Part shown: piece after piece, positions 1 to 20,000 of the stretch
Layout: each line of letters starts with the position of its first letter
Numbering within the stretch: the first letter of the stretch is position 1
Source: Vicugna vicugna
Lineage: Eukaryota
Assembly: GCA_013265495.1 (NCBI GenBank)
Contig: MU057713.1
Location: 247,751 to 267,750, forward strand
Reading direction: 5' to 3'
DNA: 20,000 nt
Position numbers and translations under genes: made by a program
The notes under the pieces: model-generated
The model's database searches: none
Told to the model about the DNA's origin: nothing
Seen by the model: only the letters and a program-made list of their open reading frames with translations

Positions 1-127
1 TTTGCAAAGGAATGAACTAGAAACAAATCAATGCAATGAATTTTTGAGGACACGGTGAAAAAAGATTGAGCAGATGTTTAAATAACTGAACCTACCACGT
101 AAAATATGTTCTGCTCCATATTGCATG

Positions 128-770
128 TAGTAGTCTCCCCTTATCCTCAGCTCCTTGCCATAGATGCAGCTACTTGCAGTCAACTGTGGCTTGAAAATAT
201 TGAAAGGAAAATTCCAAAAATAAACAATTTGTAAGTTTTAAATAGCACAGCATTCTGAGTAGCATAATGCAATCTTACGTCATCTTGCTCACTTCTACCC
301 AGGACCCTCAACCACTGTCGTCATCTGCTCCTGACATCCAACCATCGACATCATCATGGCTCAATGATCCACGATCACCTGAGTCAGATGACCCTCCTGG
401 CATGTCCTCAGAAGGTCAACTGTAGCCTGACGCCAAGTCCCAGTGCCAACGCCATGCACTTCTTTCGTCTCATCACGTGGGCATTTTACCATCCCACATC
501 ACCACAAGAAGGATGAGTACAGCACAGTAAGGTATTTTGAGAGAGAGACCACATTCACATACCTTTTATTAAATTATATTGTTGTAACTGTTTTATTTTA
601 TTATTGTTGTTCTTAACTGCTTACTGGGCCTAATTTATAAATTAAACTTTATCGTAGGCATGTATGTATAGCAAAAAACAGTGTGTATGTATAAGGGTCA
701 GTACTTGGAGGTTTCAGGTATCCACTAGGAGTCTTGGAATGTATTCCCCCAAAATGAGGGGGGACTCCTC
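128..770 (+). mobile_element. MER44-family (Tigger7-derived) non-autonomous DNA transposon, TcMar-Tigger
   Basis: Degenerate terminal inverted repeats TAGTAGTCTCCCCTTATCC (from 128) and ATGAGGGGGGACTCCTC (to 770) match the recalled MER44/Tigger7 ends CAGTAGTCCCCCCTTATCC...GGGGGGACTACTG. Internal blocks such as GAAAATTCCAAAAATAAACAATT and GAGAGAGACCACATTCACATA also match. Subfamily not resolved. Confidence 0.88.
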
Positions 771-1857
771 CACATTTTCCTTGTGATTAAGTGTTTTAAG
801 AGCAAAAATAGCTATAAGAATATCACATTCCTGGAAATGGTTAAGTGGTTAAATGTTAAATATTTCATATAGTACTTACTCTTTTTTTAAATTAAGCTTA
901 TAATAGAATAATGCTTCTCAAGAATGAAAAAGGAAAAGCGATAACATAGGAAAAATATAAATTTTAAATGTGTGAGCATATGCTAGTACCTACTGATTTT
1001 TTCCACTATGACACTGCCAAAACTTGTTACAAGAGAAATATTTTAACACACCATCACACACTATAACATCTTCTAAGCCTGGTCCAAAAATGATATGCCT
1101 AGAATTTATCTTAAAGAAATATCACACCATATTAAAAATAATGCTACTATAAAAACCCTATTTTATGATGGATGTTTTAAGTATACCTGTGATCATTAAG
1201 GAATTAGCAAAACGATGAAATTGTTAACATGTCCAAACACTCCTATCTGGTCTTCTGGTATTGCCGTCTCTTTAGATGCATCAGGATTACACAGAAGAAA
1301 AATGATTGCAGTCCTTTAGTGTTCTGAAAAATGCCTGACACTGTCCATTTTATTGCCAGCATTTTAGGCTTCATATTGTACATGATGAGCGAAATGACCT
1401 TTGAAGAAAATTGTGGGGTTGAGTAGAGAAAAATCAAATGACAGAAATTGACAGGATGGACTGTTGTTTCAAACTCGGATCTTCGTCTCAAATGACCAAC
1501 TTTTGTAACCAGTAAGTTGTTATTATTTAGTCATGTTTCTCAATGAAGTCTCCATCCAAGTACATATTATAAGAAAGGAAACCTGGTAGCACATATAATC
1601 AGCTTTAAAAAAACAAGGCAAAGCATGAGAACTTCATTATCTAGTCATTTGCAGAAATAATGATATTGAATGTGTAAATTTAGATCGTCATAGCATTGCA
1701 CAAATAAATTATTTAAAATCAATTAAATGAATTTTGGGAATATCTTAAGACCAAAAGGTGATGCAGTTCCCCTTCGGCATGAAACCACGTTCCCTGGCAC
1801 CCATCCTTCTTACAGAGATATCAAAAAGCAAGGGAGAAACCTCAAGTTCTTTAGACT

Positions 1858-1960
1858 ATTCATTCACTCAGTAAACACTTCTTGAGTGTCTAATATGTGT
1901 CAGGAAGTAACAGCTGCTGAAAATATGAAGATTACATGTACATAGTTCCAACCCCCTTAT
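1858..1960 (-). mobile_element. L2 LINE 3' end fragment
   Basis: CATTCACTCAGTAAACACTTCTTGAGTGTCTAATATGTGTCAGG resembles the reverse-complemented L2 3' terminus (CATTCATTCAACAAATATTTATTGAGCACCTACTATGTGCCAGG). Confidence 0.7.
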
Positions 1961-2649
1961 CTCTGACAGAATTGATAACATGGCAGGGAGGACCTCTGCT
2001 TTGGGGGATAACATTACCACCATGAAAAACGCTCAAAGAAAAGCCAAAAAGTAACTAAGCATTAGACACAGAACAGTTTAGACCCATTCATTTGGCCATT
2101 CCAGGCATTTTTAAAAATCATGCAGAAGTCCAATGTTCTTTCAAACTGACTCCGCCATCACAGGCGATACATCATGTCATCCCTTCCGCTTATCACCCCA
2201 GAAAGTAATGAGAGAATTCTATTCCTTGTTTCGCGTATCAGGGAACTAATGTTCTGAAAGCTCTGTGACACGTACGAGTTAAGAAGACGAGATCTTAGAT
2301 CTGAACCCTCGTCTGCCAGCATCTAGCCCATGGTTTTTCCTTGTGTAATAATTTATCTTACTATATGGAGTAAACTCATCTTCCTTCCGTTTGTTTCTCT
2401 CTTCAAACACTGATGGGAACGCCTTACTGCAAAGTAGCATTTGTTAAAATGATTCAACGTACTTTGAAAAGTGCCCACAAACAGCTCTTCCAGTACCACA
2501 AAGGCATAAAGGAAAGTGTCCCATTGAGGTAGCTTCATTTTAATACCTAGATGTGACTGAGAAACACACCCTTCTCAATTAACCCTTACATTTTCCTACT
2601 ATATTTTTCCCAGCATTTAAAACACCTATACAAAAACATTAATTTGGAA

Positions 2650-2805
2650 CTGTGGTATAAGATAGTCAATGAGCTCCAGGGTTTGCATTAAGTAGACCAG
2701 AGCTAACATCTCAGCAACTCCACCGAGCTCTGCTGGAAACCCCAGTTTGCCTCATCTGTAAGGTAGAGCGAGTACCAACTACCACATTTGTAAAACGCCT
2801 GGTTG
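2650..2805 (+). mobile_element. MIR SINE fragment
   Basis: CCCCAGTTTGCCTCATCTGTAAGG resembles the MIR core CCTCAGTTTCCTCATCTGTAAAATGG; boundaries approximate. Confidence 0.6.
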
Positions 2806-5689
2806 AGCTCTCAGCACACCAAAGCTAAAATAATCATGTTTGCATATAATTTGCAAATGCTCTTAAGTCATTCCAAAGTCAAAAAAATTATGACTAATTT
2901 TAGTCACACCCAGGAGACACTGAATAAAAGTGATTTAGCTGTGACAATAAGAAGCCAGACTGCCTGATACACATCAAGTATGTGGAGAATTATCAATAAA
3001 TATTATCTGATTATCACATGATTAAAAGTTGGTAAGTCTGTACTTCTCCTAAGGTAAATATAAAAAAACCAAAATATTCTGTCTGTATTAAAACTCTTAT
3101 TTTTTTTATTACTTTTACTTCCCTTTAGGTTAATGTATCACATTGAAATCAATGAGAAGCTCACTTAACATCTTTCTCATTTCTCAGCTCCTCTAGCAAA
3201 ACCAACTGCTGGCTTACAATAGTGTTGTTGTTACTGTTGTAAGTTCTGTAGATGTTTTGTGAAGGCATGGTCAGAAAGAAAATATCTCCCATTTTTACCA
3301 GCACATTCAACTTCCACTGCTTACATACACTCTTGCTGAATTTTGTCTAAGCCCAGAAGAAGAACTATCTCTACAGGAGTGAAATGGTGCCCAAATTATT
3401 TCATCTCAAGCTTTGTTGTCTTATTCCTAAAATTACTCTAGAGGAACAAATATTTGGAAATTTAATGGGAAATAATCCAATCTAAAACATAGTACTTGAA
3501 ATTTAATCTTACCAATAACAAAAGAGAATCGGTATGCTTTTGATACTATTAATACTGCTAAGTGCTCCACAATAAAAAGCACTCAGAAGAGAAAAAATAA
3601 AACCTTCTTTTCCCAATTATTGCAAAGTTAGAGAAAAGTCACTTAAACCTAATCACTGAAGGGAAACATACTTCGCAGAAAATAATGTAAGTGCACTCAT
3701 GCTGCAGACAAACATCACCCTGCAGTTTGCCCAGTTAACACAAGAGTTCAGGGCATCAACGCACACTTACACACCCTTCTTGTTAAAATGCTGGAAATTA
3801 ATTCCTGGCCTAAGAGGCATTCATGGTTCCATACTTAAAATCATACAGGTTCACCAGGGGAACATTTAGATTATCTGCCGATTCTGTCGTGTGAATTTAA
3901 CCTATTATTGAGCATTTGCACTTCATGGACAAAAGACCAGTAAATTCAATGGCTATGTGAGAAGGATTAGGTTATCAGACTATAAATGAGGTAGAATTTT
4001 ACTACATGGAAATCGGTGAGATAAATTCAAGCTTTGCAGGATATAAATTTGTGGTATTTACGGTAAGGGTGGCACAGCAGAAATCAATGCCTACCACCCA
4101 CCCACAAATCTCTAATCATAGCACGTTAATAGGCTTGAATTAATACGGAATTGAGTAGAACACAATTTTCCTGGTTAACATATTTTAAAAGTAAGTATGT
4201 TTATTAATAAACACAACAAGAAAAAGGAAAGAAGACTTCCTGTCGCTACCAGCTAACATTTGAGATTTAAGGTCCTATTAGGTCTAAAATTCCAGTATCT
4301 AATTATTCAGGCAAACACTGCACTCAGATATTTACCACCACACAAGTCATCACCACATGGCATGGTCACTCTGCTGGATTTACTCTACTGTAAAAAAGCA
4401 CCCTTATTTCTAGTTCAATACCACAGTGTAAGGGTACTAAACTGCACTGTAAGTTGTACAGGATCACTTAATGAACTGCAATAATACAAAACTGCCTTTC
4501 AGTGAAATGTGTTGAAGCCAGGTCATTCCATTTGATAACCTATCTTACTCACTTAACTATCGCAGTCTTTAGATCTTGACCATCTACAGTTAGGCATTAT
4601 GGGAGATTCAATATGTAAATACGATAAATTAGTTCTAAGTTAAGTCACAATGTAAAGTCACCTTCAAATATAGCATCAAGAGCAAAAATACTATTACACT
4701 TTTACAATAATTGATATAATGGCAACAAGTTCTATCTCACAGAGCCTACCCAATTGGCATCAATATATGCAGAGTGGAAATGACCCAACTTAGATCCACT
4801 TTCCAAGAATCGTGCTTAGGACACAGTAAATGCTCCTTAAATACATGATATATGACTGATACTTTTGTGAGACACTGTGAAACAAATTAACCACATTCTT
4901 TAAATGCACATTATTCCACTGGGTTCTATAACACACATTTAGTTGAAAGACCCTACTGGCATCACAAATCTTGATTCTATGTTTGGCACCAAAAGGCAAG
5001 TGATCAGACAACGACATCCACAAGGTTACTGTGTACACGCAGAATATTAGTGAGTCAAATTTGGCACAAGATACCAACGTGCAGACCTAATCAGACAGTG
5101 TATTAGCCAGTGCTGCTGAGTAATTACTTTTGTGTTTGTGAGCTGGAAATAGTTTAATACCACTTTCAGCCTTTGGATACTTTTCATCTTGCCTGCCATA
5201 ACTAAATACACCAAAAAGCAATTCAGATTCTACTGGCATTTATTAAGCACAACTGTTAAATATCACGCAGTTGGCCAGAACTTTCCACAGAAATTGATGA
5301 CTCTGACATCCAACTAGGTTTGGAAACCAACTTGCCAGTGCTTGAGTACAGTATCTCCACAAAGCTATGCCTAACTAGCTCCAGTGATAGGACAGACAAC
5401 CTGGAAAAGGCTGTGCATTTCATCTTTGAAGAGTTCTATAAGCAAAGCCTTCCATAATTAGCCAAAAATCTGCATTCTAAGAATGTCCTCCCACCTCTTT
5501 GAGTCTTTCAAATGAGCCCTCTTGCTCACCTACGTGAGCACACAGCTCTTCACAAACGTGAAAAACATGACCATTTCTCCACTTGCTTCAATTTAAAGCT
5601 GTCCATCCCTCATCGGTCTTCCTAGTAGCATCCCATCTTTTTCCTGCATGTAATTTACAACTACTGTATCATCTGTGTGTTGACTTTCC

Positions 5690-5960
5690 ACAGCCTGTGC
5701 TCCCCACGAGGACTCTCTCCCTGAGCTCCAAGATCAAGGCCACTTTGTGCCCCGCTGCACAGCCAGCACCCAACGCAGAGCAGTGCTCATGTGATGGAGA
5801 AATAGGTCAAAGAATAAATAAACAATTTAGAAGGCATAAGCCCTAATTACATTTTTTAACTTTTTTTTTTTTATATTTAGAGGGTCATAGAAAAAAGGGC
5901 AAGAGTGCCTGATTTAGCTGGTCTCTTACATAGTAGAAAATCTCAGTAAAAGACTTTTTA
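5690..5960 (+). mobile_element. Degenerate L2 3'-end fragments
   Basis: TGAGCTCCAAGATCAAGGCC...CCAGCACCCAACGCAGAGC...GAATAAATAAAC and CATAGTAGAAAATCTCAGTAAA resemble L2 3' UTR motifs; highly diverged. Confidence 0.45.
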
Positions 5961-5999
5961 ATGACTCTTTAAGTAAATAAACTTTTCCAATAATGATGA

Positions 6000-6105
6000 T
6001 CAACAGCATCTGTTTATTCTGTATATAGTTATTGTTTTTCCACAACGTACAAGACAGTGGGGATATAGCAGTGGACAGAATAGATACAGTCCCTGCCCTC
6101 ATGAT
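6000..6105 (-). mobile_element. L2 LINE fragment
   Basis: GGGGATATAGCAGTGGACAGAATAGATACAGTCCCTGCCCTCATG is a typical antisense L2 3' motif. Confidence 0.7.
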
Positions 6106-6294
6106 GTGATAACAAAGTGTAAGAGGTTACTATATAAAGAAGCAAAGTAGACTATTGAGTTAAGTTCACATCCTCACATAGATTTAGCAGTGGAACATCG
6201 ATCCTAATAATTGGTTAGTAACCACACAAGGAAAAACAGAAGAATACAGGCTTCAATTTAAACCAGTAAGTCATGGAGTTACAAAACTAAAACA

Positions 6295-6543
6295 AGCAGT
6301 CAAATTCAGAGACAGAAAGCAGAATGGTTTTTGCCAAGGGCTGAGGAGAGAGGAGAAAGGGGAGTTCTTGTTTAATGGGCATGAGATTTCAGTTTGGGAG
6401 CATGAAAATTGTTCTGGAGACGGATGGTGATGATGGCTGCATGACCATGTGAAGGTACTTAGTGCCACTGAACTGCACGCTTAAAAAATGGTTAACACAA
6501 TAAAGTTTATGTTATGTATATTTTATCACAATAAAAAAAAAAA
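6295..6543 (+). mobile_element. L1M (L1MB-like) LINE-1 3' UTR end with poly(A) tail, 5'-truncated
   Basis: CAAATTCAGAGACAGAAAGCAGAATGG...TGTTTAATGGG...GTTCTGGAGACGGATGGTGATGATGG...GCCACTGAACTGCACGCTTAAAAAATGGTTAA...TATGTTATGTATATTTTATCACAATAAAAAAAAAAA is the characteristic L1MB 3' end. AATAAA at 6530-6535 runs into the A tract. Confidence 0.88.
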
Positions 6544-7371
6544 CCAAAGGGGATTAAAAAAAAAAACCTGTGTCACACAAGGCGGCTGTACCTCGTATCA
6601 ATAATTATCATTCAGCAGCCCCGTGTACAGACGGATGGTCCCGAGTTTGTCACTGAGTTCCACAAGCACAAGGATGGAGAAACACCAGCAGAAGTAGGAT
6701 CATCAAAGAAAGAAAGACAGCTACATTTGACAAATGATGCATCATTAAGTAACTAGCAAGGAACCTCAAGGACACTGACAGCTCATTTTTTCATTCCAGT
6801 TCCCTTTGAGTAAAGCTCTCCAGGGCTATGAGACTCAGAGCTCTGTTTTGTGTTTTTGTTTTTTTTTTAATTCTCTCACTTCCCAAACACAAAGAAAATT
6901 TTACCTCTCAAGTGAAAAAGCCTAACTCTGAAAAACCCCAGGACACAACCACCAAAAATGACTGCAGAATGCAACTGAGATCTGTTGGCAAAAGCTCATT
7001 GGAAAATGTTAGCAACGCCTGCATATGCTGCCCCTGCTTCATATAAGCAACAAGGAAAACAAAATTTAGAGTCAAGATACAGGTGGTATATTACTGGAGG
7101 GGAAAAAACACCTTTTTAAATATAAAATGTAAGGCATACCGGGGACAGCACTCCTCTGAGTCCTTCTCAGAATCAAGCATCCTACCAATCATTCATACGG
7201 AAAACAAACCAGAAACAGCGTCACTGCCAAGCCAATCAAGCTGGCAACATTTATTATTTTGTGTTCTGAGTACCAGAAGATGATACAAAAGAAAGTCTCA
7301 TCGCTTGCCCTTTAGGAGCACATCATGGGAAGGGTGATGATTTGTATTATATATTTCGGCCAGGGAGTTGG

Positions 7372-7720
7372 AACACAGCAACGCAAGAGCATGGGCTCTG
7401 ATGTAATCTCAACTCAACAACTTTTTAGCTGCATGTCCTCAGTGATGACAGCTAAATCACTGAGAGCTTAGCACATACCACGAAGTGTCGTCTAAAATCC
7501 ATCCCAGTTAATCCTCACAAACTATACAAAGTAAATACTATTTTTTTAACACATAATAAATTCAAGTTATTTAATTTCCTTGAGCCTCAGTTTCCTTGCA
7601 GGGGTGGGGGAGGGAGGATTAACACCAACATCACACAACTGTTTTGAAAGTTTAATGAGTTAACATGTAAAAAAATAACTTAGATACTGTCAGCTCTCAG
7701 TGCATGAATGCTGATACCAT
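7372..7720 (+). mobile_element. MIR SINE (+), apparently interrupted by an antisense MIR fragment at about 7443-7550
   Basis: 5' part AAGAGCATGGGCTCTG...TAGCTGCATGTCCTC; core resumes at CAAGTTATTTAATTTCCTTGAGCCTCAGTTTCC (7563 onward). The intervening ACAGCTAAATCACTGAGAGCTTA...TTAATCCTCACAAAC resembles the reverse-complemented MIR 3' end. Confidence 0.6.
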
Positions 7721-7825
7721 CATTTATTATAGAAATAGCACACATTTAGAAAAGTGATTCTAGGAGAGCATTTTAAAGCACTTTTTTTTTAATACATCCT
7801 GTCTGAACTGTTTATAGATACAATT

Positions 7826-7910
7826 TAATTCAGCAAATGTGTTCCTGTTATATACAAGACCTATGCCAGGCACTGCAATGTACACCAAGATACATGACTC
7901 AATTTCTACC
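7826..7910 (-). mobile_element. L2 LINE 3' end fragment
   Basis: TAATTCAGCAAATGTGTT...CCTATGCCAGGCACTG matches the antisense L2 terminus. Confidence 0.6.
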
Positions 7911-8861
7911 ATTAAGTTGTTTAATCCAGTGAGTTTATATCTTAAAATTAAGGCAGTTGACCAACAGCCTAAGTTTATGGTTCGGTGTGAAATGTTCCTA
8001 TTCTGTATATTCTGTTATATTCGCCATCACTGTTTCATCCTATAAATGCAAGATGACATTTTTATCCTGTGAAATATGACTTTCGGAAGTTAAATAGCAA
8101 GTAAGTTCACCCAAGTACAGTTGCTCCTTTTTTCACATCGCTATGGCATATATTTTATAACACCTGTACCAACCGAACACATGCTGATTTCCAGTCATTG
8201 GTGTGCAGTTCTCTCAGCAAAAGGGAACAAGCAGCCTGCATCCAGACATCCTGTTTATAATGACAGCCTGAGCTACCAAACTCTCTACTATCTTGTCTAA
8301 TCAAAATGAACGAAAATAAATGATCAATAGTGGAAAAGCCTCTCATCTCACGTGGCGATGCGCTTTCAAGTCCTAGTGAGACTTCCTAAGATATTTATGG
8401 TGAAATCTACCCAGAACACTGATCTCAACTGGAAATCTTATAGTTTGGGAGAATGCAGGAAATGTCCCCAGGGAAACAGGGAGATGTGTATGATATACGG
8501 TACAGGGTTTTCCCACAATAAATAAGCATGTATAAAATGTCAGGGAATTTATAAAGACAGAGTATCTGACACTGTAACTAATGTATATTATAAAAACGCC
8601 TCCTTTCTCTTCCAGGCAAACTCTAGCAAAGCAAACCTTTAAAAGCAGTTAACTTGCTAAAATAACATGATCATTAGTCAAAATCCTTTCTATTTCACCA
8701 TGAAACCCCTGGTACTATCAGGGTCCTTCATCTTTCCAGGAAAGAATAGCAATACTTGTATATGGTTAAATAATGTTACCATTTATCCACACTAAGCTAA
8801 GCAAAGGCTTAAAGACAGTATTTTTATTTATTTGTTTATTTAGTTTTTGAGTAAAAGTGGA

Positions 8862-8867
8862 TTTATT
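8862..8867 (-). terminator. LTR R-region polyadenylation signal AATAAA
   Basis: AATAAA followed 13 nt later by the A-rich tail of the insertion. Confidence 0.7.
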
Positions 8868-9006
8868 TAGAGAGATACATTGAAAGGCAAGAGAAAGGCC
8901 ATGAGGTGTGGAGGTTGGGTGCTCAGATTAGAGTAAAAGTAGGTACACATTCCATAGAGTGCGGGCTATCTCAGGGGGTGAGAGAACGAGGGTGCCCTGT
9001 TGCCAG

Positions 9007-9014
9007 TTTTTATA
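9007..9014 (-). promoter_or_regulatory. LTR TATA box
   Basis: CCTATAAAAACTGG on the minus strand, about 140 nt upstream of the LTR poly(A) signal, at the expected U3/R position. An octamer-like ATGCTAAT lies at 9031-9038. Confidence 0.6.
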
Positions 9015-10134
9015 GGCTCAATGGCTTCATATGCTAATAAGTGGAAGGACCAGTCTAATCAGCCTGGGGCAGGGGCTGGGACTCCCAGGGAGTTGGCCAT
9101 TTCCCACTCTTTGACCTTTTGTGGCTAGCCTCGACCGCCATGGTGCCTGCAGGCATGCTATTCACCATGTTAATATATTACAATGGGCATATGATGAAGC
9201 TCAAGGTCGGCTAGAAGGCAAATCTCCCACCGTCATGAGCCTCAAGGCCTCCTGGGGGTTGAATCTCCCACCATTCTGGTGTTAATTGCTGTGTTACTCC
9301 TCGAATGGCTGTGCCCTGCCCCCTGCCTGTCTCATTCCCCCCTCAGAGATTTTACTCCTATAATCCTGTGGGGCTGCAAAGGGGTGAGAGTCCGTCTTCT
9401 GAAACTGCTTCCAGGACGAGTGGAGACAGTGTTTTTAAATACATCTAGATACTTCAGTTCAACTAAGTTCGAAACTAATTTACAAAACCATTGTTTTACA
9501 CCACACATAATGCTTTTAGTCCTTGAGTTTCCAATTATTTTCAGTGTTTGGTAATATATTTTTATTCAGTTTTAGTTGTATTCATTTCAGTGTTACACAC
9601 TGAGGCTGACTCTCAATCAATACTGAACGACAGGCTCATCACTGTAGATGAAACGGATGCCGAACAGTTTCAACAGCATATTGGGAATCTACCTTTATAT
9701 AAAAATATTTCCTTTTATTAAGTTGTTCCAAAATGACTACCAATGCCCCATTCCGTACTGGCACCAGGCGTGTAATCCCTTCAGAAGATGATGGGGAAGG
9801 GCAGCCCACACAAAGATAATTCAACTACGACACTAAAGTGCCGCACTAATGACATATACAAAGTGCCACAGAAACACAGAGGGATGTGCCCTCACCCAAG
9901 TCCTCGTCTCCCCTCTCCTACCTGGAGAAGAGCTGAATCCTATCGTGAAGAGCTCATCTTCTCTCTTGAAGAACACGTAATAGCTCACTAAGCAGAAAAT
10001 TAAAACAAACGAAAAACCAAGAAAGGACACTCTTAATAAAAAGGCAAGTCACACGGCCTACAGGTAGGAATGGACATGGTGTTTTCAGGGAATGTCAACT
10101 AGCTGTGTCACTGAGCTGCAGTGCACACTCAGAG

Positions 10135-10760
10135 GTATTGGCTGAGCACTATTTCAACACCAGGCACTCTGCTAGACCAGAGATCAGCAAATATCACACA
10201 GGCCAAATCTTTTCTGCTGCTTGATTTTGTATGGCTTGCAAACTAAGAATAATCCTTACATTTTTTAAGGGATGAAAAAAATCAAAAGAATGCCATTTCA
10301 TGATACATGAAAATGATACGACACTCTAATTTTATGTCCACAAATAAAGTTTAATGGGAACACAGTCCCACTCATTCCTTTGCATATGGCCGATGGCTGC
10401 CACAATGGCAGGACTGAGTAACTGTGACAGTGACAGCATGCCTCACAAAGCCTAAAGCATTTACTACACGAGAGAAAGAAAACAAGGTCTAATTGTGGAG
10501 ATGAACAGGCAAGCAGATCAAATCTCAGCGTATTGTAGGAGCACATGGTTGGGACACAAAGCCCCAGTGGTGGCAAGGGATGGTGAATAAGGAAAGGTTT
10601 ATGAGACTGGATTAAACTAACCGATCAAATTATGAGGAGTCTTACCTGTCATGCTAAAGACTGCAAACTTCATGCTAAAAGCAATGGCATGCCTTTGCAG
10701 CATTTTAAGAAGACCTAGGACATGATCAGCCTGATTTTTTTTAAATAACCATCCTGATCA
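10135..10760 (-). mobile_element. Old L2 LINE fragment interrupted by MER58B
   Basis: TATTGGCTGAGCACTATTTCAACACCAGGCACTCTGCTAGA (L2 3' end) on the left. GTCATGCTAAAGACTGCAAACTTCATGCTAAAAGCAATGGCATGCC...TTTTAAG...GACATGATCAG (antisense L2 body) at about 10645-10760. Confidence 0.6.
10178..10466 (+). mobile_element. MER58B hAT-Charlie non-autonomous DNA transposon, right end missing
   Basis: CAGAGATCAGCAAAT...GGCCAAATC...CTAAGAAT...AAAAAAATCAAAAGAA...TGTCCACAAATAAAGTTTAATGGGAACACAG...CAAAGCCTAAAGCATTTACTA follows the recalled MER58B consensus. The terminal 35 bp or so, including the right TIR, are not seen. Confidence 0.85.
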
Positions 10761-10897
10761 CAATATACCTGAGTGTACTTACTGCTTTTTGCTAGCAAAG
10801 CAAACACAACACTGGGACATAAGGACTGTTTGCTTTAGGAAGAACTGAGAAGTATTCTTATCAGGCAACCACCATTCTTACTCACTTTCTCTTAATA

Positions 10898-11000
10898 AAA
10901 TAACGATAATAAGAATAATAGCTAGCATTTACTGAGTGTTATTACATAACAGGCATTTGCTAAGTGTTTTAGATGCATTAACTCATCCAATCCTCACACA
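10898..11000 (-). mobile_element. MIR SINE 3' fragment
   Basis: AATAATAGCTAGCATTTACTGAGTG...CAGGCATTTGCTAAGTGTTTTAGATGCATTAACTCATCCAATCCTCAC is the antisense MIR tail. Confidence 0.8.
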
Positions 11001-13396
11001 TGTGACCTGTGCAAGTCATTCCTATTGAACTGGAGACATAACATGAGCAGATTTAACCACTTTCTGGATGAAACTATTTCTAGTGCTCAAACCACGTCTT
11101 TTTTCCCACTCCTAGCTGAGTATGTTGAACACTAGTAGCGTTAACTTTGACTCCCTTTGTCAAGCAGGACAGGTAGTGGAGCAATCACTCATTCATGCAC
11201 TACAACTATGCACCAAGTGTCTATCATACATCAAGGGCTGAACTGGGCGGGTAGGGGTGTACAACCTTACGCAGCTCCAGTTCCCAGGGGTTCCAAAAGC
11301 TAAACGAGAAAAGTCAACACATCACCAGGCCCAGACCTTAACCACAGTCACTGTTCATTCCATCAGCCCAGGAGCACACTGTTGAACACCTCTAATCCTT
11401 GAAATCCTCCTTAAAGCATCTGCCTTCTAAGTACTTTTGTGGGTGCATGTTCCAGTAAAGAAAAGAGAGACAGAAAAGACAGAAAGAGAATTAACGAGCA
11501 TTGGTGATGAGAATGAAGCCAAAAGAGACAGAAATCAGTGCTTCACACATGGTATTTTTGGCCTGTTTCCCAACAGCAAAACTGATGAAATAACAAGCGA
11601 CTGTTACTTGGTGTGACTAGCTTAGAGAGAGTGGGAAAATGGCCTGGGCGGGGGTAGGGTAACCCGCTAAGGTATGAACACGAGGTGGACGCCCTCAGTG
11701 ATACATACCACTTGCCTTCATTTATACCATAAAAGGTGCAGAAAATGTTTCATACCTCTAAATATTGTGCTTATATTAAATCAACCTGCTTTCACATTCA
11801 GATCTAAATTTAGTAATTATGTGCACAGCTAGGATACCTGTATCCTATGGTGTATTTCACAGGCTTATAGGCTTAATCACTTTATTTGAAAATTAGATAA
11901 AACCAGATACCAAACAAGAAAATTATCATTTTATGGGAGCACTGTGCACAAGGTACAAGATTTACAAACCATGATTTTGTAACTAAAAAGATGCTAAATG
12001 TGTATCTGGAATTCCCGCTAGACTTCCTATAGGAGCAACCTGCCTTTCAGACCCACTAGACAACAACCCTGAGAGGGAAGGGAATTACAGCTTTTTGTAC
12101 CTCTGTGTTTTTTAATTCACCTGAGATGGATAGCTTTACTACTACGTTCACTCTGTATATTCTGAACTCTACCTGCTGATAAATGGGAGAAATAAGGGAA
12201 AGAGAAAAAAATTCAGGTAGAGAAAAACCCTAGGTCTCTCCCCAAAACTTCCCACCAATATTTACTTCTCAATTTTTTTTTTGTTTACTGTAATTATCAT
12301 CTTTATTGCCAGAGGGTAACCAACCTCAGTTACCTAATAGAAGGTTTGCGGAAGAGTTAAATAGACACTTGCTAAGACTGTGAATTAGAAGTGTGGATTC
12401 TTCCCAAAATGTCTTCTTGTGTCTCATTTAATTAAGTTTTCCGAAATCAAGATCAGCTGTCTTCCCTCTGCTGTTTGAAGAGACCCTGTTCCTATTCCTC
12501 TTACCTGCCTCAGATGAGGAGACACTTCCCACATTCCATGGGTCCCCCATTTCCCGTCTCACCACCATAACTTGGTACCACCATCCTTGGCTACGCTAGG
12601 AGACGCAACGAACAGCTCCCTGCTCTCAGCATTCATTCTCCTTAGCTCTCTATTCAGACTTGGCACATGCTCCTGGAAATACAACTTTCCAAAAGCCACA
12701 GCCTAAGTACCCTGACTGTATTATGTTGACTAAACAGCCATGGAGAGTTAGATAACTGTCTAGAAACAGGTATGAATCTCACCGTGCGTAACTTCCTCTA
12801 AAATGAATCTGTGACAGCGGTCAAGGTGCCTACTGCTTGCTCAGAACACAACCTCTGCAGGTTGTTTCTGCCTTCACGCTGGATGAAGCTAATGTCTCAC
12901 CTGAGAAACCGTTCTGATTTCTACGTAAGGAAAATCTACTATTTGACAGCTTTCTGAGTATGACATAGATCCAAAAAATGTGACTGTGGTCTGATTTTAC
13001 TTATAGGAAAGAGTTTCTACGTAAAACTTACCATCTATATTCAAGCAGAGCTGGTAAAAATTAGCCAGAACATTTTATTGCTATCGTTTGGCTAATGCTA
13101 GTGTAAAACAAAATCTGCTTTAGCTTGCTTTGTATCATACTTAGTAGAGCATAATAAGCATTGTATTTTAAAGGCATCGAATACAGGGATACCTCAGAGA
13201 TACTGCAAGTTCAGTTCCAAACCACTGCCATATAGCAAAAACCGTAATAAAATGAGTCACATGAATGTTTTGGTTTCCCAGTGCATATAAAAGTTATGTT
13301 TCCACTATACTGTAGTCTATTAAAGGATGCAATAGCGTTATGTCTAAAAATCAAGGTACATGCCTTAATTTAAAAATACTTAATTAGTAAAACATG

Positions 13397-15375
13397 CTAA
13401 TCATCATCTGACCCTTCAGCTAGTCATAAGCTTTTTGCTGGTGGAGGGTTTTGCCTTGAGGTTGACGGCTGCTGACTGATCAGGATGGTGGTTGCTGAAG
13501 GATGGGGTGGCTGCAGCAATTTCTTTAAAACAAACAAACAAAAAAAGACAACAATGAAGTTATCTGCATAGATTGACTCTTCTCTTCATGAACAACTTCT
13601 CTATGGCATGCAAAGTTATTTGATAGCATTTTATCCACAGTAAAACTTTCAAAATTGGAGTTAATCCTCCCAAACTCTGCCACTGCCACTGCTTTATCAA
13701 CTGAGTTAATGTAATATTCTAAATCCTCCGCCATTATTTCAACAACCTTCATAGTGTCTTTAGCAGAAGTAGACAATCTCAAAAAACCACTTTCTTTGCT
13801 CATCCACAAGCAGCAGCTCCTTGTTCATTAAAGTCGTATCATGAGATGGCAGCAATTCGGTCGCATCTTCAGGCTTCTCTTCCAGTTCTCCTGCTATTCC
13901 CACCACATCTGCAGTTACTTCCTCCACCGAAGTCTTGAACGCCTCAAAGTCATCCATGAGAAGCAGAATCAGCTTCTTCCAAACTCCTGTTAATGTTGAT
14001 ATTTTGACTTCTTCCCATGAATCACCAAGGTTCTTAAGGGCATCTAGGATGGTGAATCCTCTCCAGAAGGTTTTCAATTTACAGTTGACCCTTGAACAAT
14101 GAGGGTGTTCTGGATGCCAACCCACCACACAGTTCACAACTGCATAGAACTTAGAGATGGCCTTCAGCAACCATGAATCAATCAACCGTGAACCATGTAG
14201 TGCTGCAGTATTTACTACTGAAAACAATCCGCATAACTGGACCCACACAGTTCAAACTGTATTATTCAAGGGTCAACTCTACTTTGCCCGAATCCAGCAG
14301 AGAAATCACTACCTGTATCATTATATCTTTACAAAATGTACTTCTTAAATCATAAGACTCGAAAGTTTAAACTACCCCTTGATCCATGGGCTGCAGAACG
14401 GATGCTGTGTTAGCAGGCATGAGAACAGCATTAATCTTGTTCTGCGTCTCCATCGGAGCTCCTGGGTGACCAAGTGCATTGTCCGTGAGCAGTGCTATTT
14501 TGAAAAGAATATATTTTCCTGAGTAGTAAGGCTCAACAGTGGGCTTCAAACATTCAGTAAACCATGTTGTAAACAGATGTGCCGCCATCCAGGCTTTGTT
14601 ATTATGTTTATAGAGCGCAGGCAGAGCAGATTTAGCATAATTCTCAAGGGCCCAAGGGTTTTTAGAGTGATAAATGGGCTCCGGTTTCAACCGTGAAACA
14701 CCAGCTGCATCAGCCCTATAATGAGTCGGCCTGTCCTTCGAAGCCAGGCCTTGACTTCTCTCTGGCTATGAAAGTCCTAGAGGGCATCTTTCAATAGAAG
14801 GCTGTTTACTCTACTTTGAAAATCTGTTGTTTAGCATAGCCAGCTTCATGAGCGGTCTGGGCTGGATCTTCGGGAGAACCTGCGGCAGCTTCTGCATCAG
14901 CACCTGCTGCTTCACCGGCACTTTGATGTATGGAGACGGCTTCTTCCCCCAAACCTCATGAACCAGCCTCTGCTGGCTTCAGACTTTTCTTCTGTAACTT
15001 CCTCACCTCGCGCAGCCTTCATAGGACTGAAGAGAGTCAGGGCCTTGCTCTGGAGCAGGCTTTGGTTTAAGGGAATTTTGCGGCTGGCTTGATCTTCTAT
15101 CCAGACCACTACAGCTTTCTCCATATCAGCAATAAGGCTGTTTCACTTTTTTTTTAATCATTGACGTGTTCTCTGGAGTAGCACTTTTTATTTCCTTCAA
15201 GAACTCTTCCTTTGCATTCACAACTTGGCTAATAATTTGGCACAAGAGGCATACCTAGCTTTCAGCCTATCTCAACTCTTGTCATGCCTTCCCCACTAAG
15301 CTTAATTATGTCTAGTTTTTTATTTAAAGGGAGAGATGTGAGACTCTTTCTTTCACTTGAGCACTTAGAGGCCAT
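13397..15375 (-). pseudogene. Disrupted Tigger1 transposase (CENP-B-like HTH + DDE_1 domain; TIGD1-like)
   Basis: ATG at 15375 gives MASKCSSERKS. Fragments VVWIEDQ...[10 protein letters not shown] (14912-15124), KAWMAAHLF...LLTDNALGHP...LQPMDQGV (14367-14690), [14 protein letters not shown]...GVWKKL (part of 13760-14248), DLEYYINSVDKA (13525-13809), and the end AEGSDDD* at 13397. Multiple stops and frameshifts; the DET catalytic motif reads VE*TAFY* near 14795-14815. Confidence 0.93.
14082..14279. mobile_element. Tigger2-derived MITE (Tigger2a-like, 198 bp) nested in Tigger1
   Basis: TIRs CAGTTGACCCTTGAACAAT and ATTATTCAAGGGTCAACTC, with TA on both sides (14080-14081, 14280-14281). Removing it restores Tigger1 GGTTTTCAATTTACTTTGCCC. 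Confidence 0.92.
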
Positions 15376-17727
15376 TGTAGGGTTATTAATTGGCCTGATT
15401 TCAATATTGTTTTATCTGAGGGAACAGGGAGAACCAAGGAGAGAGAGAGAGAGAGACAGGGGAACAGCTGGTCAGTGGAGTAGTCAGGACACACAATTAT
15501 TGATTAAGTTCACTACCTTATATGGGTGAAGTTTGTGACAACCTAAAACAAGTAACATTAAAGATCACTGACCACAAACCACCATAACAAATATAATAAT
15601 AATGAAAAAGCATGAAATCAGAAATGATATGAAATCAGAATTATCAAAGTATGACACAGAGACACAGAGTGAGCAAATACTCTTGGAAAATGGTACCAAT
15701 AGACTTGCTCGATGCAGGGTGGCCACAAATTTTCAGTTTATAAAAGACACAATCTCAGTGAAGTGCAGTTAAGCAATGTACAATAAATGAGGCATGCCCG
15801 TAATGAAAAATATGTTTTAGGAAAAAACCTATAACCTAGCTCAAATTTTATTTTCTAGCTCTGATTTTTTAAAATTGGTTATTTAATCCTAATTGCAGTG
15901 CAAACTAGTTTTCACCCAAAGAAAAACTCTAATAAAATATTGAGCACCTACTATGTGTACTGTAGAGTGACCCAAGATGAGTCGTCAAGACTCTAACTTA
16001 ACTCAGTCATATTAGCACAGCAAACAATCAACCCTGTTTCATTTTTTTATACCACATATATTTCAGTACATGTAGGGACCCTATCAATGAGGACCACTAA
16101 CAATTTATATTTCATGGGATAAAAACTCTACTAATAGTATAATGATAAGAAAGGACATTCACGTCATCCTTTTTAGATAAACAAACACTAACCATCAAAA
16201 AGATTAGTTAATATTAGTCAACTGCCTTTCTCTAACCCTCTGATAAATCACTGGTGAAACGGGAAGGGTGCTCAGGTGTTCCACTCGTGTGATTTCCATT
16301 GCTCACTTGTTTCGAGGTTTACCTGGGTAGATGGATGGAGTCAGTGCAAGAAGTCACACAAAGAAGAGAGAAAGGAACACATAAGCCCCCCTGCCAGGCC
16401 TCCCCACAGGTGAACCCATGATAGGTTTGCTTCCTTCTTGCTTATGTGAATTTCCAGTCTCTTGGCAAAGTCTGGAAACATCCCTTGTCACTGAGCAGTT
16501 TGATCTGTTCATTGATCTGCTTTTCCCTTTCCAGCACCAGCTCCACCTGACCTTTCGAGTTGCACACTCCCTCGTTTGTCTCGCCAACAGCTCTGATTCC
16601 TCTATCAGCTGGCAGACAGGGGCCATCTCACCCAGCTCTGTTTTGGTTTGCAGAGCCTGGGAGACGGTCTGTTTTGAATTGGATGAATAATGCCATGATT
16701 TGGCTTATTCTCTGCATCTTCTATTTTTATCAAAGGTTTCATTTGCAGAAAGAAATCAAAATCATGAAAAATCTTTTGGGGATTTCAAGCTTAAACAGAA
16801 TGCCTTCAACAAAGGAGAGCACTTAGAATTATATATTTGCATTTAAATGCTCGGCCATGCTGCCATCACTTATGTGGCAGTATCAAACAGCACGAGATAG
16901 ATCAGAACACAGCTGGAAATTATATCCCTAACTTATCTGATTTCATAATAATTTTAGGGTCTTTCCTTTAAAAACCAATAGCTCCAACATTTGCATTTTT
17001 CCCAGGGAATTCTCCTCTGTGAATAATAGCTCTCCCATGGTTCACAGAATGATATAAATAAAAGCACTACTTCTACAATAATTATTTCTAATTTTTAAAT
17101 TTAGCTAAACAACATCTGCCACATATTTATAACTATGAAATTGGACAGAATCATTGAACTAAAAGCAGACTAATTTAAAATATGTAAATGAAAATGTTCT
17201 AGGCTGGACCAAGGACTTGCATACAAGTTACTCTTCTGAACTGCATTTGGTGTGACTGCAAGGCAAAGAATTAACATGCAGCATATAGCTTTTTGGCATG
17301 GCCCTAGACACAGCATAGGGACTAAGAGGATCACGTTTACACTCAAACAAATTAATAAACTAGACTGTTGTTCATGGGGCAATAGAAAAGAAGTGGAAAA
17401 AGCTGTCAGAGAAAATTAAATTATCCTTAAGAGAAGTCAAATTTTAAATTCCTAAGACAGTCAAATTCATTGCAACAAGCAAAGCAAGAAAACAACCATA
17501 GTTTGTTTTTGCTGGTGTTGACTGATAGTATTCATATTTGTGTAGCACTTTTCATATAAGAATCCCAAAAGAGTTGAATTTTTTCTTGCATAGATCGTTG
17601 ATGCTATCCTACTTTGTAGAGAGTAAATATTTCCCAGCCTCCCTCAAAAAAAAAAAAAGAAAAAGAACCTCATATGTGACACTTTGCCACACAACAGCCC
17701 CAGTTTGAAGTCTATTTTTGAAGTATA

Positions 17728-17872
17728 AATCCTCTATGACGCTATTCCCATTTTAGAGGTGAAGAAACTAAAAAACACAGGGGTGAATTAATTTGCCCAG
17801 TTGTCAAAGGTAGAAGATGGTAAAGCAGAGATGCTAATCCCGGTGTCCGTCTGCAGCATTCACGGGCTTAAT
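17728..17872 (-). mobile_element. MIR SINE fragment
   Basis: CCCATTTTAGAGGTGAAGAAACT...AATTTGCCCAG...GTAAAGCAGAGATGCTAATCCCGG is the antisense MIR core. Confidence 0.75.
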
Positions 17873-18054
17873 TGTCCTGCTCTCATGCTTTTTCCATCAC
17901 CAGGCTCCTTGGGAGACCCACGGGAGTAGCCCAGGTGCCCTGAGGTACAGGATGCCATGAATGTCCTCTCTCCATGTTGTCCCCATCAGTCATCCTTTCT
18001 ACGTGGAAGGTTTTGACCCTTCAGTCTAGGTGTTTACTTCCTAACCCATCAGAG

Positions 18055-18170
18055 CTATAGAGACAGGCTCTGTTGTCAGACTGGTTGGGTTCAGATCCCA
18101 CGAGGCCATGTCATAGACGGAGGAAGACAATGTCCCATGAGTTTTCATTTTCATGAGAGAAAATTCCTGA
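18055..18170 (+). mobile_element. MIR SINE fragment
   Basis: ACAGGCTCTGTTGTCAGACTGGTTGGGTTCAGATCCCA resembles the MIR tRNA-derived head including the B-box region. Confidence 0.55.
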
Positions 18171-19511
18171 AGTATTTCTCTATTAATCTAGCACCGTATC
18201 AAGTTCTCAAGGAATCTAAACTGAGGCATATATTCACATGTGATTTCTATGATTTATGTGATTTCTATGCCTTCTACCATAGCAAGCTGGGCCGGGCTTG
18301 AGGACCTTGTCTGTCTGCCAAGAGCTAGACCAGAAAGGGGAAGAAAGGCAGACAGTTCGTTCACTCCTCCACACTGATTTTCCCCTTCTTTCTCCCCTTC
18401 TTTCTCCCCATCACTAACCTCTAACCTTACCTCTCTGTTTGCAAGATAGGAGAGCCAGTAGGTCTTGGAAAAAGACTTCCACCTAAGGCTCAAAGCGGAG
18501 ACGTTTATGAAATAATTCTCAGCTGCCAGCTACTCAGTACTCACTACACAGCTAACACTGCAGGACTTGGTGGCCAAAAATGTCCAAACATCCACACAGC
18601 AGAAAAGAAAAGCATCATGTGAGTCACTAGAATCCATCTCAGATCACAAGGAAGTTTACACAAATTGTAAGTTTACAAATTATGTAAACTCAGTGAGTCT
18701 TCCTAAGTTTCCTCTCAACTACTGCTTTAATCATCACAGAAGGCTCTCAAAGCTCCTGACAGCCAGCAGTTGCAGAGTCGACTACAGGCTGACGGGCCAC
18801 CTGTTGCGAGGTGGGAGCCAAGAATAAATACGAGTAAAATCAACTTTTGTTTATTAGGCAGGGGAAGGGACATCTGTCATAACAGCCAGGACGACCACCC
18901 CAAAGAACAAACTGCAGAGCAAACTGCTTGCCAGTTCCTATTGCAGCCGCTCACCCCTCCTCCACATCTAACACCGGAGTCTCTGCCATCTATTCCCTGC
19001 ACTGTGGTAACAGTAATGTGCCACCAAAGCACAACTATTTTCACTTTTAAAACATGGGCTGGAACACGTGTATCTAATGTGTAATTAATAGATGGGCATT
19101 AGAATATTCATAAAGATGGGTATTTCTAAAGACTGAATAATACGTTAAACACCCACAATGGAAAATGTTGTCAATGTATTTAATTTTGTAATTAAAAATT
19201 AGGTGAGTAACATTTTAACTTGAGCTAATTGGTTTCAAACAACTTTCATGTTTTCTTTCCAAGTGACATCGATTGCGCGACATTGAGGCCCGCGATCTCA
19301 GACCATTCAGTTAGGACACCTAATCTATAAGGGAAACACCTGGTGGCAGCAACGCTGTGGCTGGTTGAGATGACAGGAAGGAAGAAGGCCATCAAATGAG
19401 GGAAGACCTAGCACGTGTCCGATGGGCTGGGCGGGTTCACCTGTGTGGTTTCTTCCTAACACTGACAGCACACTGGTTACGGAGGTGTATCACAGATAAC
19501 ATTCCACAGAG

Positions 19512-19640
19512 AGCCATTTTACAGATAACAAAATGATCTCTCTAAGAGATTAGTGACTCATCTAAGGTCATACAGCTAATAGTTAGGGTATCTCCTGCTT
19601 GCACCACCACCAACTCCAATGAACTATGCATTATAGTTTC
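19512..19640 (-). mobile_element. MIR SINE fragment
   Basis: CCATTTTACAGATAAC...AGTGACTCATCTAAGGTCATACAGCTAATAG is the antisense MIR core. Confidence 0.7.
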
Positions 19641-19975
19641 TACATCAAGTGCCTGAACAACTTAAACTCATATGAGAAGGTGGATAAGTATCAGACAATA
19701 TAGCAGAACATCCCAAATTGTTAAGACAAACTGTTCTTCCCTGACCCAACCCCTGCAAAGTGAAACAAAACAAAAAACAAATATTAAGCATAAAAATGTG
19801 GACCATAAAGGCAAAATAAATTGCAATCATCCTGTACTTCCATATCACTTCATTAGTTAAAGTAGAGGTCAAGATTTCTTTGGAGTAACCAGAATAATGA
19901 ACCCAGGGGAAGAAAGTTGCCTCCAGCCCTCATGCTCATGGCCACATAGACAAACTTACATAGGTTAAGAGGATG

Positions 19976-20000
19976 TCTCTCTCTCTCTCTCTCTCTCTCT
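19976..20000. repeat. (TC)n microsatellite running off the window end
   Basis: Perfect TCTCTC... from 19976 to the end of the window. Confidence 0.97.

Follow-up and report, generated by a model that had tools for sequence, protein, structure and literature searches.

A probable LINE-1 retrocopy of the 3' end of an endogenous retrovirus transcript in the genome of Vicugna vicugna

Background

Among human endogenous retroviruses (ERVs) HERV-W is described as the only group that is regularly copied by LINE-1 (L1), and the determinants of this are said to be unclear (PMC5537654). Its processed pseudogenes are recognised by a 3' LTR consisting of U3-R, a poly(A) tail, insertion at a TT/AAAA motif and a target-site duplication of 5–15 bp (PMC5016936; Pavlicek et al. 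2002 as summarised there). They make up 135 of 213 loci, more than half being without a 5' LTR, and in the full-length pseudogenes the 5' LTR is reduced to R-U5 (PMC5016936). The ERV-W-like elements of New World monkeys are reported to have no such copies (PMC6995185). A retrocopy of HERV-K(HML-2) at 2q32.1 carries a 13-bp duplication with one mismatch, and the paper describing it also cites retrotransposed HERV-H (PMC3590776). A further case is SVA, which carries a part derived from HERV-K10, named SINE-R (PMC5753468, PMC2912911). For L1-made ERV retrocopies outside primates no report was found in open-access titles and abstract openings which, with most subscription papers and the Repbase and Dfam entries lying outside this coverage, is weak evidence of absence.

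The locus described here, on the minus strand of a 20,000-nt stretch of the Vicugna vicugna genome (hereafter the window; GenBank assembly GCA_013265495.1, contig MU057713.1, positions 247,751–267,750), is most likely a DNA copy, old and dead, of the final 575 bases of an ERV RNA, pasted into the genome by L1 and not by the machinery of the virus. It resembles the HERV-W pseudogenes in its 3' LTR, which seems to have been reduced to U3-R, and in its poly(A) tail, its TT/AAAA site and a duplication within the range of 5–15 bp. Like more than half of them it is without any 5' LTR, and it starts inside the internal region. It differs from them in being only 575 nt long, and whereas retrocopies account for about two thirds of the non-solo HERV-W loci, no second one has been shown in the family of this element. 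By its insertion marks, rather than by likeness to LTR17/HERV17, the element may be said to work like a HERV-W processed pseudogene, and it is not classed as HERV-W.

With the HML-2 copy at 2q32.1 the element would share the character of a sporadic L1 retrocopy in a family otherwise spread by integrase, together with a 13-bp duplication containing one mismatch, and both were missed by routine annotation (PMC3590776). The HML-2 locus, however, derives from a rec-like mRNA that was spliced and nearly full-length, and it retains a remnant of the 5' LTR, whereas in the element the 5' truncation is heavy and no splice junction is seen. SVA is a many-copy composite of a hexamer repeat, an Alu part and a VNTR besides its retroviral part, unlike the element, in which nothing is composite and the 5' head is low-copy. 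SINE-R itself, which consists of an internal end, U3-R and poly(A), is comparable as a HERV-derived 3' segment mobilised by L1.

Results

Structure of the element

When both strands were read, the minus strand showed, in this order, TTT, a 13-mer, 89 nt of ERV-like internal end, TG-U3-R, an A-rich tail and the 13-mer once again. The first copy of the 13-mer, the 5' copy of the target-site duplication (TTT/AAAAACACTGTCT, 9436–9424), carries at its outer edge a consensus site of the L1 endonuclease, situated between 9436 and 9437 and reading TTTTT/AA on the plus strand. It is followed by the 3' end of the ERV internal region (9335–9423), a GC-richer sequence with its 5' truncation point at ~9423, where 79 of the 89 nt precede a polypurine tract (GAGGGGGGAA, 9344–9335). 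The tract leads straight into the TG (9334–9333) of an LTR of 486 nt (8849–9334), and because of this position the LTR is identified as a 3' LTR. The initial annotation, made from the sequence alone, had let the element start about 80 nt inside ERV internal sequence and pass a polypurine tract into TG-U3, in agreement with these positions.

The LTR, a member of a high-copy family, appears to consist of U3 and R only. A TATA-like box (TATAAA) was read at 9009–9014 and R would be expected to start some 25–30 nt downstream of it. The polyadenylation signal AATAAA at 8862–8867 is the sole AATAAA or ATTAAA within 8849–9423, and the final LTR-like base, 8849, is located 13 nt past it, which is the distance after which the element had been proposed to stop in an A-rich tail. 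The tail (8826–8848) has 17 A in 23 nt (74% A), as in a decayed poly(A) tail, and is followed by the 3' copy of the duplication (AAAAATACTGTCT, 8813–8825), which has one mismatch to the 5' copy and borders on a single-copy flank. C8849 forms CA together with the first A of the tail, contrary to the earlier statement that no terminal CA is present, and from TG onwards the ends read TGAG...CTCA, an inverted pair of 4 bp. Since cleavage at a poly(A) site usually takes place at CA, the CA at the tail junction is ambiguous and would fit such a cleavage site as well as the end of an LTR.

U3 contains a tandem duplication of 38 nt (9194–9231 and 9235–9272, 71% alike), and joints from 9183 to 9241–9242 in the contigs described below suggest that members of the family differ around it. 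In R a short motif was seen twice, at ~8849–8860 just before the tail and at ~8930–8942, about 80 nt upstream; loose contig ends at 8884, 8924, 8930 and 8958 point to subfamilies differing in this part of R. Pfam gave no match in the eight stop-free frames of at least 48 aa that overlap the element, and neither Rfam nor a tRNA search gave a match in the element or in the rest of the window, and a coding or structured-RNA role of the element was rejected.

Target-site duplication and insertion site

Flanking 13-bp repeats with one mismatch, starting at TTT/AAAAAC, had been pointed out in the initial annotation, and they were recovered at 8813–8825 and 9424–9436, from where the duplication stretches to 14 bp, still with one mismatch (8813–8826 and 9424–9437). 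Neither 13-mer has a third copy in the window at up to one mismatch. The 13-bp repeat exceeds chance: among 3000 zone pairs drawn at random, 6 gave an ungapped match as good or better, and when the left zone itself was paired with other zones, none of 952 pairings did. Positions 9439–9432 of the minus strand read TTT/AAAAA, which is the TT/AAAA insertion motif; for comparison TTAAAA is present at 51 of the 40,000 strand-positions of the window, and TTTAAAAA is present at 11. The TT/AAAA site belongs, together with the tail and the 13-bp duplication, to the marks published for HERV-W pseudogenes, and the three support the earlier proposal of target-primed reverse transcription by L1 as in that group.

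No duplication of 4–6 bp was found around TG...CA, where the letters are GGGGAA before and AAAACT after. The locus also departs from an integrase-made solo LTR in that multi-copy internal sequence and the polypurine tract stand before TG and in that the flanks are unmatched. This bears equally on another origin, in which the locus would be what remains of an integrase-made provirus, with an LTR whose true end is the CA following AATAAA, or which has lost its U5, with the 5' part of the provirus deleted, and with an A-rich tract and 13-mers that are coincidental or scars of repair. The TGAG...CTCA ends are consistent with such a remnant, as are a tail with just 17 A in 23 nt, the mismatch in the repeat and the location of the family 3' end in a stretch left out of the contig comparison (8817–8849, see below). 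It would however need a repeat arising by chance, at the frequencies given above, at both edges of the family likeness, and in addition an endonuclease site and an A-rich tract that are both coincidental, while lacking the short duplication that would flank TG...CA. Retroviral LTRs, moreover, normally continue into U5 past the poly(A) site, and we regard a provirus remnant as highly improbable.

Copy profile of the LTR family

Contigs of four of 24 listed public runs (the DNA runs X1, X4 and X14 and the RNA run X15) were aligned to 8400–9850 at 80% likeness, leaving out the simple repeat at 8817–8849, where the 3' ends or tails of the family would lie. In each DNA run 3,120–4,942 contigs matched 8400–9850, most of them less than 95% alike. 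Depths are given as summed contig depth relative to the single-copy flank, a relative measure that yields no copy number. Depth above single copy was confined to the element: in all three DNA runs the bins 8743–8840 (8817–8849 left out) and 9429–9477 were single-copy, and contigs from other loci aligned as far as 9414–9415, 8–9 nt short of the duplication. As the family likeness stops at the edges of the element, its boundaries are placed independently of the repeat.

The initial annotation had stated that the element has no U5, and had named 8760–8825 as the stretch into which the LTR of the family might continue as U5. The latter was not borne out, 8743–8816 being at single-copy depth. The former is upheld in part: the flank beyond the tail is single-copy and so is not U5, but with the CA at the junction and the U5 and 3' end of the family falling within the left-out 8817–8849, the loss of U5 is to be taken as probable rather than as observed.

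Inside the LTR the summed depth reached ~2,300–2,500x single copy. In the bin 9282–9330, at the very start of U3, it was 2,470–2,880x, as high as in mid-U3, and at 9325 it was 2,280–2,469x, followed by 151–164x at 9359, 24–47x at 9379 and 15–18x in the bin 9380–9428, which represents the 5' head. The depth thus falls ~15-fold at the TG boundary and ~150-fold by 9380–9428, with the same step in the three runs, the fall within the internal part being partly an alignment effect because this copy has clustered private differences at 9359–9379. A loose end at 9324 (X15) shows that the same TG is the starting point of other copies, whose letters upstream of it are unlike (agreement 0.62). Most relatives therefore begin at TG/U3, like integrase-made solo or 5' LTRs, and an RNA initiated in R cannot yield such ends.

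These depths also bear on the suggestion, made in the initial annotation, of a SINE-like family. For copies with this 5' head such a family would need high depth at 9380–9423, which is absent, and the suggestion is not supported for them. A wider version is that the element belongs to a sizeable L1-mobilised subfamily, either a burst like that of HERV-W or a retroposon like SINE-R, hidden among copies labelled as solo LTRs. HERV-W, with the share of loci cited above (135 of 213; PMC5016936), provides a precedent, the depth on the polypurine-tract side is still ~150x and declines 5'-wards as truncations would, and tails of other copies would fall in the left-out 8817–8849. The high depth at the start of U3 with its drop at TG argues against it, however, as do the low depth of the 5' head and the unlike letters upstream of the loose end at 9324. 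Copies starting at TG cannot derive from R-initiated RNA, and at least 10 solo LTRs per provirus is an ordinary ratio (PMC13756887). Some of the copies may be retrocopies whose truncation point lies inside U3; a sizeable subfamily we consider unlikely.

From its U3 and the stretch around AATAAA the LTR may be of class I and MER41-like. MER41_BT, MER41_Vpa, MER41_SS, MER41_Ttr and MER41_CF are LTR families of several hoofed mammals and carnivores (PMC9435751), and the sizes of such MER41-like families of Laurasiatheria, which are in the thousands, fit the depth of the LTR family of the element. In the part covered here of the 16 supplementary files of PMC9435751, four motifs of the window gave no match. 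A scan with sequence patterns gave 20 loci for one pattern and none for three others in viral contigs, 5 loci for one pattern and none for two others in genome contigs (prokaryote), and no loci in two scans of metagenome contigs. None of these 25 loci matches beyond the 20–21 nt of the pattern and they were rejected as further copies and attributed to chance.

Occurrence of the insertion in sequencing runs

In all three DNA runs single-depth contigs spanned both the 3' junction (8400–8889) and the 5' junction (9336–9850), each with 0–2 other letters. The insertion is common to the three organisms behind these runs, and among X1, X4 and X14 no empty site was found, both junctions being occupied in each. 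Contigs of the RNA run X15 bridge the 5' junction too, differing at 11 letters over 250 nt and at 4 over 231 nt, as compared with 0–2 in 515 nt in the DNA runs, and the host of X15 seems, judging from these differences, to be a more distant relative sharing the insertion. In X15, a single study represented by contigs only, the upstream flank (9429–9850) is covered and the flank past the tail (8400–8840) is not, a pattern that would fit a transcript ending at the poly(A) site of the LTR. Public runs of four organisms hold 0.77–0.83 of the sampled words of 7600–10600. A reading of this share of ~0.8 as absence of the insert was ruled out by the contigs of X1, X4 and X14, which carry it.

Divergence and age

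In all three DNA runs the element departs from the majority letter of the family at 21 to 31, depending on the threshold, of the 34 places listed within it. This corresponds to a divergence of at least 3.7–5.4% of the 575 nt, as calculated from 40 of 283 entries. The divergence, the decay of the tail, the mismatch between the two copies of the duplication and the presence of the insertion in several organisms together point to a copy that is old, fixed and dead. Editing of the RNA template (A-to-I) was considered and rejected, A>G against T>C among the listed differences being 10:6, 8:4 and 7:3 at three thresholds (p 0.34–0.45). The same listed differences show a lean of the copy towards G/C of 21:9 (p 0.04) at the loosest threshold and of 14:7 (p 0.19) at the strictest, which is not robust.

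Surrounding sequence

The window consists of mammalian non-coding DNA (CpG observed/expected ratio 0.29), and 4 of its 133 stop-free frames match Pfam, all at 13.7–15.4 kb. The domains, all on the minus strand, are CENP-B_N (15265–15411), HTH_Tnp_Tc5 (14915–15142) and DDE_1 (14370–14765, with a weak match at 13763–14251). They are situated in a decayed DNA transposon of the Tc1/mariner-pogo type with broken frames (13184–15801, minus strand, ends read by eye), which we take to be Tigger1. Nested in it is an element of ~200 nt (14082–14279), flanked by TA and with the inverted ends CAGTTGAC... and ...GTCAAC, presumably a Tigger-type MITE. An old DNA-transposon-like stretch at ~130–770, recognised by eye and giving no Pfam match, is presumed to be of Tigger/MER-type, and the stretch at ~6190–6540, which is closed by an A-rich tract at ~6530–6570, is assumed to come from the 3' end of an old plus-strand L1. 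No lineage-specific or young SINE was seen by eye in the window (1–20000). For camelids only MIR SINEs are reported (PMC8605555).

Discussion

The reading that we favour, and regard as probable, is that of a sporadic, 5'-truncated L1 retrocopy of the ERV's own transcript, and taking together the readings that involve L1, an L1 insertion is very likely. It is supported by a tail 13 nt after the sole AATAAA, a repeat of 13–14 bp and an exact endonuclease site. Against it can be put the TGAG...CTCA ends, as a complete LTR might have them, a tail that is 74% A, and the finding of no empty site in the runs compared.

As to the mechanism, transcription of a provirus belonging to a high-copy ERV family of class I would have given an RNA that was cleaved at the R end of the 3' LTR and polyadenylated there. 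The ORF2p of L1 may then have nicked the target at TTTTT/AA and primed on the poly(A) tail, with reverse transcription proceeding through ~575 nt (R, U3, the polypurine tract and 79 nt of the internal end) before it stopped. A nick in the second strand 13 nt away followed by repair would give the duplication. The product would be a non-coding, 5'-truncated processed pseudogene, a by-product of a family that has spread mainly as integrase-made LTRs.

The same L1 mechanism could also have acted on another template, namely an mRNA or lncRNA of the host, or a read-through transcript of L1 (an orphan 3' transduction), that used the poly(A) site in the LTR of a proviral remnant, with the 5' truncation removing all non-ERV sequence. 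LTRs do give poly(A) signals to other transcripts (PMC5016936), and a 5'-truncated copy cannot reveal where its RNA began. The element carries no non-ERV cargo, however, the likeness to the family reaching 9414–9415, within 8–9 nt of the duplication, and a proviral transcript requires no extra assumption. A read-through template is in our judgement improbable, and the ERV's own RNA, copied by L1, is preferred.

Taken as a single locus the element matters little, illustrating in a clean form a process that is already known, and repeat annotation will label such copies as truncated LTRs. It would be different if the LTR family were a second, non-primate case of the HERV-W kind, in which L1-made retrocopies of the U3-R-poly(A) form make up a sizeable share of the non-solo copies and of the seemingly solo LTRs, an extension that we think unlikely. 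What makes an ERV RNA a good substrate for L1 is called open in reviews of HERV-W (PMC5537654, PMC6995185), and a high count of tailed copies across this family, if true, would provide an independent natural comparison for that question.
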